Origin: Candidatus Gottesmanbacteria bacterium
Lineage (GTDB): Bacteria; Patescibacteriota; Microgenomatia; 2-02-FULL-39-11
Assembly (NCBI GenBank): GCA_016195685.1
Contig: JACPZE010000020.1
Coordinates: 85,725-149,724, forward strand
DNA length: 64,000 nt
Direction of reading: 5' to 3'
The position numbers were made by a program, and so were the translations under genes. Positions 2,722 through 55,291 of this stretch are shown piece by piece. Position 1 is the first letter of the stretch; each line of letters opens with the position of its first letter. The notes beneath the pieces are model-generated. The model saw only the letters and a list, made by a program, of their open reading frames with translations. It did not search any database and had not been told where the DNA came from.

Positions 2722-3684
2722 ATGACTGCAAAAATAAAATGCTTAGTTACTGGTGGAGCAGGATTTATAGGATCCCATTTGTGTGATAAGTTGATCGAAA
2801 AAAGATATGAAGTAGTTTGTTTAGATAATCTGATCACCGGTAACAAAGAAAATCTTCGTCAACTTCTAAATAATCCAAATTTCCACTTCGTCCAACATGA
2901 TGTAGTAAACCCTTTTACAACAAAACTAGATTTATTAAATCAAAAAATTCAATATATTTATCATTTAGCATCTCCTGCAAGCCCTCCACAATATCGTAAA
3001 TACTCCATAGAAACGTTGCTTACTAATTCATCTGGTACATATAATGTTTTGGAACTAGCAAGAAAAATGAAAGCATTTTATTTGCTTGCTTCAACTTCTG
3101 AGGTTTACGGTAATCCTATAATGCATCCGCAGAAAGAATCATATTTTGGCAATGTAAACCCTGTCGGACTGCGTGCATGTTATGACGAAGGAAAACGTTT
3201 TGCCGAAGCATTAACTATGGAGTATGTTCGAAAGCATAATCTTGACGCAAGGATTGTAAGAATTTTTAATACATACGGTCCTAGAATGCAAAAAGATGAT
3301 GGTCGGGTAGTTTCTAATTTCATAAATCAAGCAATTGCTGGAATATCTTTGACGATATATGGAGATGGTACCCAAACGCGATCATTTTGTTACATTTCCG
3401 ACATGGTAAATGGAATTATTGCTGCCATGGAGAGTAAAGATATGATAGGTGAGGTAGTGAATCTGGGTAATCCCAATGAATTAACCATCGAGGAAATCGG
3501 GGAAATCATTCTCAAACTGACAAACTCAAAATCATCAATGGAGAAATATGATGAAAGGATAGGCGATGATCCAGATAAAAGAAAGCCAGATATTGAAAAG
3601 GCGATGAAAAAACTGCATTGGGAACCTCAAATTGATTTGGAAACAGGTCTTAACAAAACGATAGAGTATTTTAAGAATTTATGA
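2722..3684 (+). CDS. uxs: UDP-glucuronate decarboxylase (UDP-xylose synthase)
   Basis: VTGGAGFIGSHLCDKL, then YDEGKRFAEAL (catalytic YxxxK) and RIFNTYGPRM/DGRVVSNFI blocks, match UXS/ArnA-decarboxylase-type enzymes. It sits downstream of ugd, the classical UDP-GlcA to UDP-Xyl route. Confidence 0.8.
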   Translation: MTAKIKCLVTGGAGFIGSHLCDKLIEKRYEVVCLDNLITGNKENLRQLLNNPNFHFVQHDVVNPFTTKLDLLNQKIQYIYHLASPASPPQYRKYSIETLLTNSSGTYNVLELARKMKAFYLLASTSEVYGNPIMHPQKESYFGNVNPVGLRACYDEGKRFAEALTMEYVRKHNLDARIVRIFNTYGPRMQKDDGRVVSNFINQAIAGISLTIYGDGTQTRSFCYISDMVNGIIAAMESKDMIGEVVNLGNPNELTIEEIGEIILKLTNSKSSMEKYDERIGDDPDKRKPDIEKAMKKLHWEPQIDLETGLNKTIEYFKNL

Positions 3685-4820
3685 AAATTGTTCATATTAT
3701 TCCTACATTTAATGAGAAAGAAAATATCGGGAAAATGATAGAAGCTCTTGAGGCTTTAGAGAAAGAGAAGAAGTGGGACGCGGATATTTTAATTGTAGAT
3801 GACCATTCACCCGATGGTACTGCCGAAGAGGTCAAAAAATATCAAGGCAGATTTTCAAACGTGCACTTACTATTGAAAAAAAAGGAAGGCTTAGGACGTG
3901 CATTGATAATGGGTTACGAGTATGCCATAGAAAAACTGCATGCAGACGTTGTCATCCCCAATGATGCAGATTTCCAGTGGGATCCGCAAGATATGCCCAA
4001 ACTGATAAGTAAAATTCAAGAGGGTTATGACGTGGTTGTTGCCTCCAGACACGTTTCTGGTGGTAAGGTAATCGGATGGAATTGGTTTCGAAAACTGAAT
4101 CATGAAATTTCCAATACATTTTTAGCCTGGTGGGTTGCTGGTGTACATGAGGTAGTAGATCATGCTGGGAATTTTAAAGCGATTAGGGTCAAAGGTATTT
4201 TAGATAAAGTAGCTCTATCCAAAATGAAAAACTCAGGATTTTCTTTTCAACTCCACGTTTTGTACGAATTATCCAAAACGGGTGCTAGATTCACAGAAGT
4301 GCCGTCGATTTTTAAAGAAAGAAAATTCGGCAAATCTAAAATTGGGTTTAACCGTTACTATTTGCGCGATGTACTTGAGTATATAAGGAGTAGTATCAGT
4401 ATCCGTATAGAAAGATCAAACAACTTTTTCAAATATGTAATTGTCGGTGGAACTGGATTTATTATCCAGCTTCTACTTGAGTCGTTGCTTATCACTTTCA
4501 TGCATTTTGAAGAAAGTAATGCCGTTGCCTTAGGCGCAGAAGCAGCGATTATTTCCAATTTTATCCTTAACAATGTATGGACATTTTCGCATAAAAGAAT
4601 GCAAGGGTTCAAAATGATTTATAAATTTATGCAGTTTAATATCGTATCGGTTGGATCGATAATTATTCAAAAAATTGTTATTCAATTAGGTACAAATTAT
4701 ATCAGTCATTCACTTTTGTTTGTTTTGGTCCTTAATATTTTAACGATATTAATCTTGATTATTCCATATAGCTATTTTGTCTATAATAGGTTTATTTGGA
4801 AAACACACAAAAGAAATTAA
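3681..4820 (+). CDS. GT2 polyprenol-phosphate sugar synthase (DPM1/ArnC/GtrB-like) fused to a C-terminal GtrA-like membrane domain
   Basis: N-terminus IIPTFNEKENIGKMIEAL ... ILIVDDHSPDGT carries a DxD motif and is DPM1-like. The C-terminal ~120 aa (KYVIVGGTGFIIQLLLES...NNVWTF) is a 4-TM GtrA-like segment. Confidence 0.75.
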   Translation: MKIVHIIPTFNEKENIGKMIEALEALEKEKKWDADILIVDDHSPDGTAEEVKKYQGRFSNVHLLLKKKEGLGRALIMGYEYAIEKLHADVVIPNDADFQWDPQDMPKLISKIQEGYDVVVASRHVSGGKVIGWNWFRKLNHEISNTFLAWWVAGVHEVVDHAGNFKAIRVKGILDKVALSKMKNSGFSFQLHVLYELSKTGARFTEVPSIFKERKFGKSKIGFNRYYLRDVLEYIRSSISIRIERSNNFFKYVIVGGTGFIIQLLLESLLITFMHFEESNAVALGAEAAIISNFILNNVWTFSHKRMQGFKMIYKFMQFNIVSVGSIIIQKIVIQLGTNYISHSLLFVLVLNILTILILIIPYSYFVYNRFIWKTHKRN

Positions 4821-4828
4821 TTTCCAAA

Positions 4829-53014: not shown

Positions 53015-53792
53015 TGTCATTACTCCTTCATATAATCAGGGGAAATTTATCCAACAAACCATAGAATCTGTCCTTTCCCAAAACTATCCAAATATTGAAT
53101 ATGTAGTTATGGATGGAGGATCTAAGGATCAGACAATAAAAATATTGGAAAAATATAAAGATAAACTTAGTTGGATTTCAGAAAAAGACAAAGGTCAGTC
53201 AGATGCTATAAATAAAGGACTAAAAACAACTTCAGGAGAAATTGTTGCTTATATCAATTCAGATGATTATTACATACCTGGAAGTTTTCTTACAGTTGGG
53301 AAATTTTTTTCAGAAAATAAGGATGCTTATTGGCTGACCGGAAAATGTAAAATCGTTGATGAAGATGGACTTGAAGTAAGAGGAGTAGTCACTTTTTATA
53401 AAGATTTGTTCTTGAAATATTTAAGATTTAAAAATATTTTATATATCGTTCAGTTTATATCACAGCCGGCAACTTTTTGGCGAAGGGAATTACTTGATCA
53501 AATAGGATTTTTTGAAGAGAGACTCGATTATGATATGGATTATGATTATTGGTTAAAGATCTGGCAAAAATATAAATTGTATTATTTGGATGAATATTTA
53601 GCTTCCTATAGAGTACATAATTTGTCGAAAGCCGTAGTTTCAGCAAAGACGCAGTTTGAAACAGCTTACAAAATCACCAAGAGATATACCCGCTCTAAAT
53701 TAATTTTGGTATTACATCAAATGCATGCTAAGCTTGCCCAGGTTATCTATAGAAAATTTTGGATAAAAAATGAAAAGAATACTTACACATGA
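52989..53792 (+). CDS. GT2 glycosyltransferase
   Basis: [42 protein letters not shown] ... INSDDYY. Confidence 0.7.
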   Translation: [267 protein letters not shown]

Positions 53793-55291
53793 AAAAGATA
53801 AGATATCTATTTATTTCACTGGTTATTATGAGTCTGCCTTTCAGGCTTTACCATCTGAATTATCCGCTCTTAGATGCAACTAATTTTAGACAAACTCAGA
53901 CAGCTACGATAGCCTTGAACTTTTATAAATACGGTATTAACTTATTTGGTTCGCAACTTGATATATTTGGCATAGGAAAAGAAAAATATCTTACCTTAGA
54001 ATTTCCTTTATATGAAGCAGTAGTGGCATCTTTATATAAAATTGGTTTTAGTGAGGTATGGGGAAGGGTTGTTTCGATAATTGCGGGATTTGTTGGCGCA
54101 TATTTTTTATTTAAACTTACTTTATTGATACTTGATACTTGGAAAGTAGCGTACTTTTCCGCTTTCTTCTTTTTATTTGCCCCATTGAATATGTTTTATG
54201 AGCGTACCTTTATGATCGAGCCTACATTGATAGCGTGTCTCCTTGCTGGTCTATACTATTTTTGTTTGTGGAACGAAAAGCAAAATAAAATTCACTTAGT
54301 TTTCTCAATTATTTTTTTAACATTTGGTTTTATCCAAAAAGCCTTATACGGGCCATTCTGGCTTCTTCCTATATTGGCATATTTTATAAGAAAAAAAACT
54401 TCACGCTTCCATAAGTTTTTTAAATTTATCTTATTTGCAGCTATCCCGTTGATTATATTGATAGTTTGGCAGGAATATGCAAATTATATAAATACTCAAA
54501 ATGGGCATGAATACTTTACTTCTGGTAATATCAAACAATTAATATGGAATTTTGGCCTGCTGGAGGATAGATTTTCATTCTCGATGTGGCAGCCGCGTCT
54601 CCAGCAGTTAGTTGATGGAATTTTTCTTAAACCGGGACTTATTATTTTTCTCTTAGGTTTGGTAAGTGGACTTTATTTGAAAAATACTCGTTTCTTTTAT
54701 GCATGGATCGCCTCGCAAATACTATATTTCTTAATTGTATTCAGAATTCAATCCCATAATTATTATCAGATGATAATGATCCCAGCAGCTTCGGTGTTTA
54801 TGTCGATAGGCTTAATAAAATTATCTGATTGGATATCTTTGGGACTTCGAGAATTGAAATTTAATCATATAAACACAAAACACACGAAAACTGTCTTTTT
54901 GACTTTATTTTGCGCATTTTTTATTTTGAGATCATGGATGCATACTAGATGGGATTTTTATCTAGATTGGAAATGGTATAACAGATTATTATTAGTAGGG
55001 AAATCTGTACACCCAAATAAATATGGGATACTTATCAACCCGGGGTATGATTGGAATTCTAGTTATACCTACTACCCACGTCTCAAAGCATTACTTGTAT
55101 CGGTTGAAGATGTTTCGCCTGCAAGTATAGGGAAATTGCAACAGACTGGATATTCATACTTGATACTTCATGATGATACTCAATATCCAGGCTATCTAAA
55201 GGGGATCAATCGTGAGGTTAGCTTGGATTTTTTACAAAAATACAAGCAGGTTTTGAATCTTGAAGATTTTAAGGTATACCTTTTCAAATAG
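53789..55291 (+). CDS. Polytopic membrane protein, ArnT/GT39-like GT-C glycosyltransferase candidate
   Basis: About 12 TM helices. First loop LDATNFRQTQTATIALNFYKYG...LEFPLYEAVVASLYKIGFSEVWGRVVSIIAGFV resembles ArnT-family architecture. C-terminal soluble domain. Confidence 0.5.
   Translation: MKKIRYLFISLVIMSLPFRLYHLNYPLLDATNFRQTQTATIALNFYKYGINLFGSQLDIFGIGKEKYLTLEFPLYEAVVASLYKIGFSEVWGRVVSIIAGFVGAYFLFKLTLLILDTWKVAYFSAFFFLFAPLNMFYERTFMIEPTLIACLLAGLYYFCLWNEKQNKIHLVFSIIFLTFGFIQKALYGPFWLLPILAYFIRKKTSRFHKFFKFILFAAIPLIILIVWQEYANYINTQNGHEYFTSGNIKQLIWNFGLLEDRFSFSMWQPRLQQLVDGIFLKPGLIIFLLGLVSGLYLKNTRFFYAWIASQILYFLIVFRIQSHNYYQMIMIPAASVFMSIGLIKLSDWISLGLRELKFNHINTKHTKTVFLTLFCAFFILRSWMHTRWDFYLDWKWYNRLLLVGKSVHPNKYGILINPGYDWNSSYTYYPRLKALLVSVEDVSPASIGKLQQTGYSYLILHDDTQYPGYLKGINREVSLDFLQKYKQVLNLEDFKVYLFK

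Follow-up and report, generated by a model that had tools for sequence, protein, structure and literature searches.

The window, a 64,000-nucleotide stretch of DNA, carries 53 co-directional plus-strand genes that span positions 1-61738 almost without gaps. They comprise 50 open reading frames of at least 150 amino acids between 408 and 61738, two small frames (16785-17177 and 52652-53014), and a partial RmlD gene (1-411). Thirty-five of the 52 gene junctions overlap, a gap above 50 nt occurs at one junction only (131 nt), and 99% of the locus is coding. The genes may be transcribed as a single operon. The sequence comes from a MAG of Candidatus Gottesmanbacteria bacterium, a tiny-genome member of the CPR.

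An earlier note described a glycosylation locus at 3681-55291. The genes it described lie there, but the glycan gene set begins 5′ of 3681, with RmlD, Ugd, and two SDRs, and runs beyond 55291 to at least 61738. As the note stated, a Wzx flippase, cytoplasmic GT2 and GT4 enzymes, and nucleotide-sugar genes are all present in the same co-directional run. In addition to its donor synthases and membrane glycosyltransferases, the window encodes six further GT2s, five GT4s, seven SDR epimerase/dehydratases, Ugd, and a UGM-like enzyme.

Nucleotide-sugar, cytoplasmic, and flippase genes

The window start cuts an RmlD-like dTDP-4-dehydrorhamnose reductase gene, of which the 3′ end is present (1-411; Pfam RmlD_sub_bind, 1.7e-15). 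It is followed by UDP-glucose 6-dehydrogenase (Ugd; 408-1700), which contains three UDPG_MGDP_dh Pfam domains and scores 465 bits with the NCBIfam nucleotide-sugar dehydrogenase model (above cutoff) and 524 bits with TuaD. In a relative, rmlABCD lies directly 5′ of Ugd. Two SDRs come next: an extended-SDR nucleotide-sugar dehydratase/decarboxylase (1715-2683; GDP_Man_Dehyd, 290 bits; no NCBIfam equivalog cutoff reached) and a protein like the ArnA decarboxylase domain or UDP-xylose synthase (2722-3684; 113 bits with NCBIfam PRK11908 and 112 bits with the ArnA C-terminal half, each short of its cutoff). Further SDRs are a 4,6-dehydratase/epimerase (13896-14930; Pfam Epimerase/GDP_Man_Dehyd; dTDP-glucose dehydratase model, 194 bits, below cutoff), an epimerase (14927-16051; Pfam Epimerase, 1.1e-48), a GalE-like 4-epimerase (44237-45169; galE model, 181 bits, below the cutoff of 262), and an epimerase/reductase (55318-56340; Epimerase, 7.4e-41).

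The gene at 45156-46622 encodes a UDP-galactopyranose-mutase-like flavoenzyme; it scores 453 bits with NCBIfam PRK07208.1-4 (above cutoff), and its top 20 PDB matches are all UGM, with 4dsg matched over the full length at 1.5e-18. A small cupin protein (16785-17177; Cupin_2, 9.3e-17) is a possible sugar isomerase, and in a relative a Cupin_2 gene lies between orthologs of its two flanking genes. The 3′ end of the run encodes a WbbJ-like hexapeptide acetyltransferase (56384-57013; Hexapep), a SAM-dependent methyltransferase (58215-58913; Methyltransf_11, 6.5e-19), a GFO/IDH/MocA oxidoreductase resembling UDP-GlcNAc 3-dehydrogenase (60115-61125; Pfam; NF040723, 200 bits, below cutoff), and a hexapeptide protein like NeuD/PglB-type sugar N-acetyltransferases (61112-61738; Hexapep, 2.3e-21; TIGR03570, 84 bits, below cutoff).

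Five of the six further GT2s fall into two groups. Group B contains three paralogs: 22857-23762 (GT2, 2.5e-19; NCBIfam top matches other than Pol-P synthases), 24681-25436 (3.4e-15), and 49015-49770 (9.8e-21), the last with a C-terminal transmembrane segment at residues 227-245. Group C contains 28777-29688 (3.9e-26) and the TuaG-like 52989-53792 (2.3e-26; TuaG model, 92.6 bits, below cutoff). The remaining cytoplasmic GT2 is rhamnosyltransferase-like (23755-24684; TIGR01556, 1.8e-20, below cutoff). GT4 glycosyltransferases matching Glycos_transf_1 lie at 25420-26517 (3e-20), 49783-50838 (1.4e-34), 57040-58218 (1.7e-27), and 58910-60118 (2.5e-24). The Wzx/MOP-family flippase (19661-21184) has 12 transmembrane segments and matches Polysacc_synt_3 at 1.2e-40 and the MOP flippase model at 5.3e-24.

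Polyprenol-phosphate-sugar synthases

Six GT2s are candidate polyprenol-phosphate (Pol-P)-sugar synthases (PPS) of the DPM1/GtrB type, as previously claimed; the claimed start coordinates match open reading frames, and a joint profile, NCBIfam, and BLAST grouping agree on the family. All six pass Pfam GT2. PPS 1 (3681-4820; GT2, 1e-24; top NCBIfam match ArnC) carries a GtrA/DPMS transmembrane domain (GtrA_DPMS_TM, 8.6e-15) and resembles P. furiosus DPMS in domain architecture. PPS 2 (6340-7092; 5.5e-28) is short, lacks a transmembrane segment, and best matches PgfS (86 bits). PPS 3 (13139-13894; 1.2e-23) best matches ArnC, and PPS 4 (16048-16788; 3.9e-20) matches AglJ, PgfS, and Dol-P-hexose transferase. 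PPS 5 (46567-47379; 1.5e-20; top matches AglJ and PpgS) has one C-terminal transmembrane segment, and in 21 of the 29 related occurrences its gene precedes that of a GT-C partner. PPS 6 (51966-52646; 2e-26) is PpgS-like, with 133 bits over the full length of a model whose cutoff of 370 is not reached.

In BLAST comparisons, the six form one paralog group apart from the window's six other GT2s. Their joint profile matches DPMS 5mlz (1e-43, full length), ArnC (~1e-26), and GtrB (1e-24); beyond these, matches are partial, and the full-length ones are polyprenol-phosphate-sugar synthases only. The top NCBIfam match of each is ArnC, PgfS, AglJ, or PpgS, whereas the other window GT2s match rhamnosyltransferase, MftF, TuaG, or SunS instead. 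The six share the signature PxYNE...DDxSxD...DxD...GSR...DxQxGF[KR]. Among the window genes, no PPS, SDR, or GT-C reaches an NCBIfam equivalog cutoff. By family membership, these six are putative Pol-P-sugar synthases.

PPS 6 is directly followed by a gene for a small DUF2304 membrane protein of the GacJ/Rv3632 type (52652-53014; DUF2304, 1.2e-20). Such proteins are activators of soluble Pol-P-sugar synthase (bioRxiv 10.1101/180810; PMC3485146), and the pair here resembles Rv3631/Rv3632 (PpgS/Rv3632) and GacI/GacJ.

Membrane glycosyltransferases

A hydropathy scan identifies 20 polytopic proteins besides Wzx, with topology taken from hydropathy and a positive-inside check, a rough approach. 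All 20 are GT-C-related by Pfam HMM, profile-profile comparison, or structure prediction, in line with the approximately 20 claimed earlier, but one (31405-32268) lacks the catalytic loop. This speaks against the alternative named in the note, in which most of them would be without GT-C signatures. Fifteen exceed Pfam gathering scores (GA) for PMT_2/PMT, PTPS_related, YfhO, or PIG-V; of the other five, one is assigned through the MptA/B family, three by profile-profile comparison, and one by AlphaFold and Foldseek. The GT-Cs contain an acidic DE/DD/HD motif directly past the first transmembrane segment (TM1) and K/R-rich N-termini. Nineteen, from at least eight sequence families, are plausible as catalysts.

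Three PMT_2 proteins lie at 4796-6337 (35.2 bits, GA 26.1; nine transmembrane segments; GDEGRD past TM1, with the DE in loop 1), 18537-19679 (40.3 bits; short, without a C-terminal domain; hhalign 97-98% to two other PMT_2 families), and 53789-55291 (35.9 bits; hhalign 95% to the family of 4796-6337). The protein at 8294-9784 matches both PMT_2 (66 bits) and PMT (38.7 bits), is Agl23-like (2.9e-12), and has TDE past TM1. At 17174-18565 lies a GT-C-like protein with nine transmembrane segments and QDDW past TM1; it has no Pfam family and matches the PMT_2 family of 4796-6337 (hhalign 96%, E 4e-9).

The PTPS_related/YfhO clan includes 9800-11428 (PTPS_related, 43.6 bits, GA 26.4; HDGE past TM1), which matches the YfhO-family protein at 26486-28780 (93.9 bits, GA 28.5; RDE past TM1) by hhalign at 100%. 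Another member, 47366-49018 (PTPS_related/YfhO C-terminus; 28 bits, GA 26.4), has HD past TM1. The protein at 11404-13149 (HDD past TM1) is a paralog of 9800-11428 and 47366-49018, with 27-28% BLAST identity over the full length and an hhalign match of 100% (E 4e-129). Two further families are represented by a PIG-V (Mannosyl_trans2) protein (50835-51959; 33.9 bits, GA 22.4; eight transmembrane segments) and an MptA/MptB-family protein (7073-8266) with 8-10 transmembrane segments; the latter matches TIGR03459 MptA at 5.5e-11 (below cutoff), and PF26314 MptA_B_family is found in all of its homologs.

Seven tandem ArnT/PMT-like paralogs share an alignment. These are 29672-31393 (PMT_2/PMT; invariant DE past TM1), 32180-33916 (PMT_2, 44.6 bits), 33903-35654 (PMT, 32.3 bits), 35569-37260 (PMT_2, 46.1 bits), 37392-39023 (PMT_2, 40.9 bits), 41007-42617 (PMT, 49.6 bits), and 42614-44227, the modelled representative. 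Each has its own ortholog at 47-66% identity, compared with 28-41% from paralog to paralog. The protein at 31405-32268 is a degenerate copy (hhalign 99.6%, E 6e-25, with deletions) in which both the DE segment of loop 1 and the C-terminal domain are missing; it is kept in at least 10 related genomes.

The protein at 39023-41005 has no Pfam or NCBIfam family and is a GT-C by predicted structure: its AF2 model has a pLDDT of 91, and its top 25 Foldseek PDB matches are all GT-C. It contains an invariant D140 in an SxHDxMW motif and belongs to a family of 1051 representatives at E<=1e-30. Separately, 21181-22851 encodes an exported or anchored DUF3863-like protein with one N-terminal hydrophobic segment, a weak DUF3863 match, and similarity to PDB 3lm3 (5e-5). 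In other organisms, its counterpart (36-37% identity) forms the N-terminal half of fusion proteins, joined to the 39023-41005 family.

Conservation and proposed glycosylation system

The locus is not confined to one genome but is conserved among many public Microgenomates MAGs. Its genes have 1:1 orthologs in collinear order, at 38-80% identity, on an independent contig of 355 kb, and the same gene content recurs in 79 related loci from across Microgenomates. Among related loci, the 53 that measure 20 kb or more contain a median of 10 GT-C genes, and 91% of their sequence is homologous to window genes. The order UGM-like gene, PPS, PTPS_related GT-C is kept in 14-21 loci. Together with the dense co-directional packing and the separate orthologs of the seven paralogs, this conservation suggests that the genes work as a single system. 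The collinear contig and the 79 loci exclude a chimeric assembly, which the earlier note had raised, and they show that gene content is conserved, as is gene order, which it had proposed to check. Genes of the locus in public Microgenomates MAGs carry routine GT39/GT2 annotations.

[quoted passage not shown] Its products would be one or more complex glycans of the cell surface, built mostly on the membrane's outer face. Ugd, the seven SDRs, the UGM-like mutase, the cupin, the acetyltransferases, and upstream rml genes would supply nucleotide sugars; these enzymes are placed at the family level, with putative sugar products. The six DPM1/GtrB/ArnC-type GT2s would load single sugars onto polyprenol phosphate at the cytoplasmic face; PPS 1 bears a GtrA/DPMS membrane domain, and PPS 6 has the DUF2304 helper. 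The six other GT2s and five GT4s may build a lipid-linked oligosaccharide that Wzx would flip. Pol-P-sugars may cross via the GtrA-like domain and/or Wzx; against six donors, the window has only one of each.

The nineteen GT-Cs, including the seven anciently duplicated paralogs with their invariant DE, would then lengthen and branch the exported glycan with sugars taken from Pol-P donors. Their fold and motif are established; donor, acceptor, and linkage are proposed. Each donor would be common to several GT-Cs, and family membership with conserved adjacency suggests that the synthases feed them. This donor-synthase/GT-C logic and the enzyme inventory are upheld by HMM, profile-profile, structure-prediction, and comparative tests.

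The acceptor could be a lipoglycan, a wall polymer, or a protein. Proteins may serve as acceptors, since the protein O-mannosyltransferase model is passed by several GT-Cs. RmlD and the upstream rmlABCD, the rhamnosyltransferase-like GT2, and Wzx are pointers to rhamnose and a lipid-linked glycan. The most likely end product is a rhamnose-containing wall-linked polysaccharide or lipoglycan. The window encodes no priming phosphoglycosyltransferase, Wzy polymerase, O-antigen/LCP ligase, or ABC exporter, which leaves gaps in the acceptor pathway within this stretch.

Multi-component transmembrane glycosylation is an established paradigm (PMC8035078; bioRxiv 10.1101/180810; PMC11127046; PMC3485146), and the closest described form is the Gram-positive system (PMC8035078; GacI/J/K/L, bioRxiv 10.1101/180810), a parallel absent from the earlier note. 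The product logic is analogous to streptococcal Rha-CWPS decoration and to mycobacterial LM/LAM/arabinan assembly. The likeness to mycobacterial LM/LAM/AG and PMT drawn earlier is apt as an analogy, given the MptA/B-family gene, the PpgS-like PPS with DUF2304, and the PMT-model GT-Cs. The note's impression that no such architecture had been described holds for scale but not for enzyme logic, which is known from Gtr/Gac systems and mycobacterial LM/LAM/AG. A locus of this scale and density, conserved across the lineage, is so far undescribed as a system.

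Gene organization and conservation of the locus

The window carries 53 co-directional genes: 50 plus-strand open reading frames (ORFs) of at least 150 residues, called between 408 and 61738, together with a partial RmlD gene (1-411, plus strand) inside which the window starts, a cupin gene (16785-17177), and a DUF2304 gene (52652-53014). Together they account for 99% of 61.7 kb; 35 of their 52 junctions overlap, and just one intergenic gap exceeds 50 nt (131 nt at 37260-37392); co-transcription is presumed. The G+C content is low and even along the window (0.30-0.36), and a tRNA scan found no tRNA genes there. 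Promoter and terminator consensus scans of 30000-49999 returned the same counts as shuffled controls and are therefore uninformative on operon structure. Pfam searches at E ≤ 10 gave noise-level matches for six unassigned ORFs and for the minus-strand ORF.

That ORF (61700-63124), the only one of at least 150 residues called on the minus strand, and a plus-strand ORF running past the window end (63018-64000+) are two more polytopic proteins directly beyond the glycan locus, with overlapping 5' ends on opposite strands. Shortly after the first transmembrane (TM) helix, the former carries FDMDPH and the latter HDES. Their best hhalign probabilities (84% to an MptA_B-like family and 67% to a PMT_2 family) are weak evidence for GT-C-type membrane glycosyltransferases, and the glycan region may continue beyond the window.

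Relatives were sought in one genome per GTDB species, which yielded 439 relatives of the seven-paralog family (tandem ArnT/PMT-like GT-Cs between 29672 and 44227) and 79 fetched loci from Gottesman-, Levy-, Chisholm-, Roizman-, Curtiss-, and Woesebacteria. Of these loci, 53 are 20 kb or longer; they contain a median of 10 GT-C-like ORFs (range 7-12), and homologs of window genes cover a median of 91% of their sequence, with 92% of these homologs on one strand. About half of the related metagenome-assembled records (L003-L081) are titled 'uncultured Gammaproteobacteria' and are TPA co-assembly bins; they hold a Microgenomates-type locus at 40-63% identity, and their taxonomy looks like a placeholder or an error.

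The 355-kb contig JAMCUI010000009.1 of GCA_023379265.1 contains 1:1 collinear orthologs of 408-18565 (45-80% identity) and 29672-53792 (38-71% identity), a span of approximately 51 kb from which only 39023-41005 is missing. Among the fetched loci, a UDP-galactopyranose mutase (UGM)-like gene directly precedes a polyprenol-phosphate (Pol-P)-sugar synthase (PPS) in 14; the PPS that follows a UGM-like gene is itself followed by its own PTPS_related GT-C in 21 of 29 occurrences, and GT2, GT4, and PIG-V genes come next in order in 22-34 loci. Segments identical to the window over several gene junctions also occur in independent Logan assemblies (runs SRR12113409/10/14/15). Collinearity, independent assemblies, and conserved adjacencies together exclude chimerism and chance, so that the joining of unrelated contigs, which the earlier note had named as a possible flaw, is rejected, and the gene order is kept in related genomes.

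In other Microgenomates, sub-modules appear in varying order and combination: 'Epi-UGM-PPS-GT-C-GT2-GT4-PIG-V' moves as a unit, 'PPS-MptA/B-GT-C...PPS-Wzx-GT2' is another unit in Levy- and Roizmanbacteria, and some loci contain inverted blocks. Such rearrangement favors a view of the region as several independent small PPS and GT-C pathways lying side by side and possibly serving wall polymer decoration, glycolipid, and protein glycosylation, much as three GT-A/GT-C pairs serve three polymers with one flippase in L. lactis (PMC8035078). This view is quite improbable. About 33 genes are strictly collinear with the relative at approximately 60% identity, all on a single strand with 35 overlapping junctions, and the seven-paralog block contains no PPS and must use donors made elsewhere in the locus. 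The favored explanation is one multiplied, multi-component transmembrane glycosylation system that would build a surface glycan.

Membrane glycosyltransferases of the GT-C fold

A hydropathy scan identified 20 polytopic proteins besides the Wzx flippase. The earlier note had read about 20 such proteins as bearing GT-C hallmarks, and all 20 are linked to GT-C enzymes by Pfam, profile-profile comparison, the MptA model, or structure prediction; the failure of most of them under HMM analysis, which would have undone that reading, was not observed. Fifteen ORFs exceed the gathering threshold of a Pfam family: eleven PMT_2/PMT, two PTPS_related, one YfhO, and one PIG-V. The PMT gathering score itself (PF02366, 22.7 bits) is exceeded by 8294-9784, 29672-31393, 33903-35654, 41007-42617, and 42614-44227, and all five carry DE in loop 1.

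Five polytopic proteins have no above-threshold Pfam match and are tied to the GT-C class by other tests. The 11404-13149 protein is a full-length paralog of both PTPS_related proteins (9800-11428 and 47366-49018; hhalign 100%), 17174-18565 is linked to a PMT_2 family (hhalign 96%, E 4e-9), and 31405-32268 is a truncated member of the seven-paralog family. The 39023-41005 protein, which matches neither Pfam nor NCBIfam, gave a confident structural model (pLDDT 91, pTM 0.92). The 7073-8266 protein matches the MptA model at 5.5e-11, and PF26314 (MptA_B_family) is present in all of its database homologs; at 42 bits against a cutoff of 439, it is a distant member of this family. It had also been considered as a Wzy/EpsG-type polymerase, a candidate dropped on an EpsG match of E 0.7. 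An artefact, either a chimeric assembly or an over-reading of hydrophobic ORFs as GT-Cs, could be argued from the metagenome-assembled source and from these five proteins. Its probability is negligible: the GT-C links of all five, identical gene junctions in independent Logan assemblies of three runs, collinearity with the independent 355-kb contig, even G+C content, and the structural matches of 39023-41005 refute it.

The proteins have the polytopic domain of 8-13 TM helices and the fold that characterize GT-C enzymes. A DE, DD, or HD motif lies within approximately 10-25 residues of TM1 in 15 of them, and H30 and D31 are invariant in the PTPS_related trio. In a crude hydropathy and positive-inside check, the segments before TM1 are rich in Lys and Arg and the loops after it are acidic, which fits a topology with the N-terminus inside and the catalytic loop outside. 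Because of their fold and the six synthases in the same locus, these enzymes would use Pol-P- or polyprenol-diphosphate-linked donors. The GT-C complement probably consists of 19 plausible enzymes and one pseudo-enzyme.

The seven tandem paralogs (29672-44227) are 28-41% identical to each other and share an invariant D32-E33 directly after TM1. The family has no match in the PDB at the sequence level. The model of 42614-44227 (pLDDT 88.8), annotated by NCBI as a 'phospholipid carrier-dependent glycosyltransferase', has GT-C proteins as its top 38 Foldseek matches, with the best TM-score to ArnT (0.60) at 10-12% sequence identity. Each paralog has its own ortholog in the relative at 47-66% identity, closer than the paralogs are to one another, which indicates that the duplications are old and have been retained. 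The truncated 31405-32268 is homologous to this family (E 6e-25) and keeps TM1 and most membrane helices. What it lacks is a loop-1 segment of approximately 48 residues with the DE and DYKPP motifs, a pair of central TM helices, and the C-terminal soluble domain. At least 10 relatives have it in the same place, and it may act as a pseudo-enzyme, a scaffold, or a lipid-carrier handler.

The top 25 Foldseek matches of the 39023-41005 model are exclusively GT-C proteins (DPY19, STT3/AglB/PglB, AftA, ArnT, and Pmt4), followed by unrelated transporters at probabilities below 0.2. A profile search of 1.84 billion representatives recovered 1051 family members at E ≤ 1e-30, and a word-indexed search recovered fewer (74 proteins). 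Among the top 150 relatives, at least 12 are fusions of approximately 1030-1160 residues in which the 39023-41005 domain forms the C-terminal half. Their N-terminal half resembles the exported or anchored, DUF3863-like protein 21181-22851, with 36-37% identity over approximately 470 residues (E 7e-87 and 3e-90). The two genes lie 17 kb apart in the window, and the fusions, as Rosetta-stone proteins, suggest that their products act together as a functional pair.

Several of these features would also suit protein glycosyltransferases, with PMT-like enzymes initiating O-glycans on surface proteins such as pilins or S-layer components, other GT-Cs extending them from the same Pol-P-sugar donors, and a Wzx-flipped oligosaccharide possibly being transferred en bloc to protein. 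Five GT-Cs score above the PF02366 threshold, all seven paralogs carry the PMT-type DE, the best structural matches of the 39023-41005 model are DPY19 and STT3/AglB/PglB, and Wzx weakly matches the NCBIfam O-glycosylation flippase. S-layers and pili have also been reported on cells of the candidate phyla radiation (CPR). This alternative is unlikely. Initiation normally needs a single PMT, and seven conserved paralogs plus 12 more GT-Cs fit polymer building better; ArnT, ALG12, and AglB score structurally as well as or better than PMT, so the acceptor cannot be read from the fold. Neither an OST-type WWDYG domain nor a PglL/WaaL-type ligase was found, and the rml genes, a rhamnosyltransferase-like GT2, and the YfhO and MptA/B families are features that usually belong to polymer pathways. 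In comparison with PMT enzymes (GT39), the window proteins lack MIR domains and include seven paralogs; a protein acceptor is putative.

Predicted polyprenol-phosphate-sugar synthases and sugar supply

All 12 GT2 ORFs pass the Pfam GT2 model and fall into three groups in all-against-all BLAST. One group comprises the six GT2s at 3681, 6340, 13139, 16048, 46567, and 51966, which match each other. Their assignment to the DPM1/GtrB-type family in the earlier note is borne out by full-length profile matches. In a search of all PDB sequences, the profile of this group first finds Pyrococcus DPMS (5mlz, 1e-43, positions 1-231 of 241), then three ArnC entries (approximately 1e-26) and GtrB (1e-24), after which other GT2s match by their N-terminal part only. 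Their alignment shares the pattern PxYNE / DDxSxD / DxD / GSR / DxQxGF[KR], with D40, D45, D97, and S122-R123 invariant. The top NCBIfam match of each is a Pol-P-sugar synthase (ArnC, PgfS, AglJ, or PpgS), whereas control GT2s match rhamnosyltransferase, MftF, TuaG, or SunS-type models. The best scores of the six (50-133 bits) reach none of the equivalog cutoffs (325-529 bits), and 51966-52646 scores 133 bits across the full PpgS model. This homology supports assignment to the Pol-P-sugar synthase class, a class-level assignment with no sugar attached.

The synthases differ in membrane attachment. The 3681-4820 protein joins a GT2 to a GtrA/DPMS-TM domain, as in archaeal DPMS, and 46567-47379 has a single C-terminal TM helix; those at 6340, 13139, and 16048 have neither their own TM helix nor a small partner protein in the window. 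Directly after the PpgS-like 51966-52646 lies a DUF2304 membrane protein of 120 residues (52652-53014, plus strand; Pfam 1.2e-20). DUF2304 is the family of GacJ and Rv3632, activators of the soluble synthases GacI and PpgS (bioRxiv 10.1101/180810; PMC3485146). The gene falls below the 150-residue ORF cut and was missing from the earlier list. Each of the six synthases has a GT-C no more than two genes away, and this adjacency is kept in relatives.

Nucleotide-sugar enzymes include Ugd and seven SDRs, one resembling ArnA decarboxylase or UDP-xylose synthase and one GalE-like. In the relative, rmlA, rmlC, rmlB, and rmlD lie directly upstream of Ugd (L085 41-3164), which places dTDP-rhamnose synthesis at the head of the locus. 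One flavoenzyme has UDP-galactopyranose mutases as all of its top 20 PDB matches and exceeds the PRK07208.1-4 cutoff. The locus further encodes a cupin, two hexapeptide acetyltransferases, a methyltransferase, and a UDP-GlcNAc-3-dehydrogenase-like oxidoreductase. The gene for the Cupin_2 protein (130 residues; 16785-17177, plus strand) separates the fourth synthase from a GT-C, and orthologs of these two genes flank a Cupin_2 gene in the relative as well; as a possible keto-sugar isomerase, the window protein could determine the sugar of its module.

At 44237-49018 (plus strand), a GalE-like SDR, the UGM-like flavoenzyme, a PPS, and a PTPS_related GT-C form a string kept in 14-21 related loci. 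Its composition suggests a putative polyprenol-phosphate furanose donor made by a GT2, for which we know of no described precedent.

Six GT2s outside the synthase group, one of them rhamnosyltransferase-like, five GT4s, and one Wzx complete the set. No free-standing GtrA was found in the window, which has one fused GtrA_DPMS_TM domain. Pfam searches of the 53 genes detected no Bac_transf, Glycos_transf_4, Wzy_C, Wzz, or LCP domain; priming phosphoglycosyltransferase, Wzy, ligase, LCP, and ABC exporter are absent from the window, as are genes for export or ligation of a polymer backbone. The missing components of a Wzx/Wzy pathway may be encoded elsewhere in the genome.

Proposed glycan assembly and its relation to known systems

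In multi-component glycosylation, a GT-A enzyme, assisted in some cases by a small membrane protein, synthesizes C55-P-sugar, which a flippase of the GtrA or Wzx type carries across the membrane, and a GT-C transfers the sugar to a surface polymer (PMC8035078; bioRxiv 10.1101/180810). One flippase can serve several GT-A/GT-C pairs (PMC8035078). The window would share this GT2, flippase, and GT-C logic with GtrA/GtrB/GtrC, CsbB/GtcA/YfhO, and GacI/J/K/L: the soluble 51966-52646 and its DUF2304 helper mirror GacI and GacJ, a YfhO-family member is present, and RmlD heads the cluster as gacA does. The known systems use one to three GT-A/GT-C pairs to decorate a polymer made elsewhere, whereas a single locus here combines six synthases with 19-20 GT-Cs (about 1:3), has no ABC exporter, and provides most synthases with no dedicated flippase. 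The GT-Cs probably build much of the glycan, beyond decoration.

Mycobacterial lipomannan/lipoarabinomannan (LM/LAM) and arabinogalactan (AG) assembly (Ppm1, PpgS/Rv3632/Rv3779, PimE, MptA/B/C, EmbA-C, and AftA-D) likewise relies on many GT-Cs that share PPM, DPA, and Pol-P-GalNAc donors and polymerize and branch outside the cell (PMC3485146). The likeness drawn in the earlier note holds for this shared-donor logic and fails at the level of individual proteins, where orthologs of MptA/MptB, PimE, Emb, and Aft were not found. The two have in common a member of the MptA/B family, a PpgS-like synthase paired with a DUF2304 protein, and a homolog of UGM, none at equivalog score. The window has no Emb- or Aft-family Pfam match, its 53 genes include no decaprenyl-P-arabinose pathway (UbiA, DprE1/2), and it lacks the GT4 signature of PI-mannosides. 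In mycobacteria, which belong to Actinomycetota rather than CPR, the corresponding genes are dispersed around a 4.4-Mb genome, and the AG cluster contains no more than about five GT-Cs.

The start of the locus (408-6337) parallels the Ugd-ArnA-ArnC-ArnT pathway (GT83; PDB 5ezm, 5f15) with Ugd, an ArnA-decarboxylase-like SDR, an ArnC-like GT2, and a PMT_2 GT-C. The window lacks the ArnB aminotransferase, formyltransferase, and deformylase, and lipid A modification was rejected as its function on the absence of these arn-specific amino-sugar enzymes. CPR cells, as monoderms, would not be expected to offer lipid A as an acceptor. Gram-negative bacteria add pentofuranose side chains by a similar route, in which polyprenyl-phosphoribose synthase, a MATE flippase, and a GT136 GT-C attach a furanose from a Pol-P donor outside the cytoplasm (PMC11127046). 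The parallel in the window is the UGM-like mutase immediately upstream of a PPS and its GT-C, which would supply and use a furanose donor. The synthase is a GT2 using a nucleotide sugar, whereas that of the pentofuranose system is PRPP-dependent and UbiA-type, and the window has no MATE flippase.

Under the favored explanation, nucleotide-sugar modules would supply the neighboring synthases. In the arn-like string, Ugd and two SDRs would feed 3681-4820 and then the GT-C 4796-6337; the GalE-like and UGM-like enzymes would feed 46567-47379 and then the GT-C 47366-49018, possibly through a furanose donor. GT2 and GT4 enzymes would build a lipid-linked core for export by Wzx, and the GT-Cs, including the seven paralogs with no synthase of their own, would extend and branch it outside. 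That the polymer contains rhamnose is suggested by the rml genes upstream and by the GT2 that resembles rhamnosyltransferases.

The component families are all known or are new branches of a known fold, and such genes are routinely annotated in public metagenome-assembled genomes. Peribacteria have about eight DPM-synthase copies (PMC4736985), and a Saccharibacterium has three with a GT87 (PMC6031116). No paper describing the locus or its architecture in Microgenomates or CPR was found, only passing remarks. What is new relative to known systems is the scale, with six synthases and about 20 GT-Cs in approximately 60 kb; the share of the genome (an estimated 5-6% of about 1 Mb, from complete relatives of 0.995-1.09 Mb); conservation across Microgenomates; and the size of the 39023-41005 family and its fusion with 21181-22851 homologs.

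A bolder proposal, offered tentatively and as a possibility that more probably fails than holds, is that Microgenomates assemble their dominant envelope glycopolymer mostly outside the cell from six Pol-P-monosaccharide donors, in the manner of LAM or arabinogalactan and independently of Actinomycetota, from a single operon-like locus of approximately 60 kb. It would include a GT2-made Pol-P-furanose donor, at least one GT-C family unknown to Pfam with its DUF3863-like partner, and a catalytically dead GT-C paralog kept as a scaffold or to handle carrier lipid.

CPR bacteria, an abundant and mostly uncultured group, are presumed to live in attachment to other cells, and they cannot make many of their own lipids. 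To our knowledge, their envelope chemistry is essentially unknown. The locus is apparently the largest single CPR investment in the structure of the cell surface. Conservation of its gene order across several Microgenomates candidate phyla points to a specific glycopolymer that could serve host attachment, phage resistance, or envelope integrity. With about 20 divergent GT-Cs, six synthases, and conserved pairings, the locus also amounts to a natural library, and it offers a Pfam-less GT-C family, a DUF3863-like partner, a probable pseudo-enzyme, and a candidate Pol-P-furanose route. The system would extend the 'three-component' paradigm from side-chain decoration toward wholesale extracytoplasmic assembly outside Actinomycetota.
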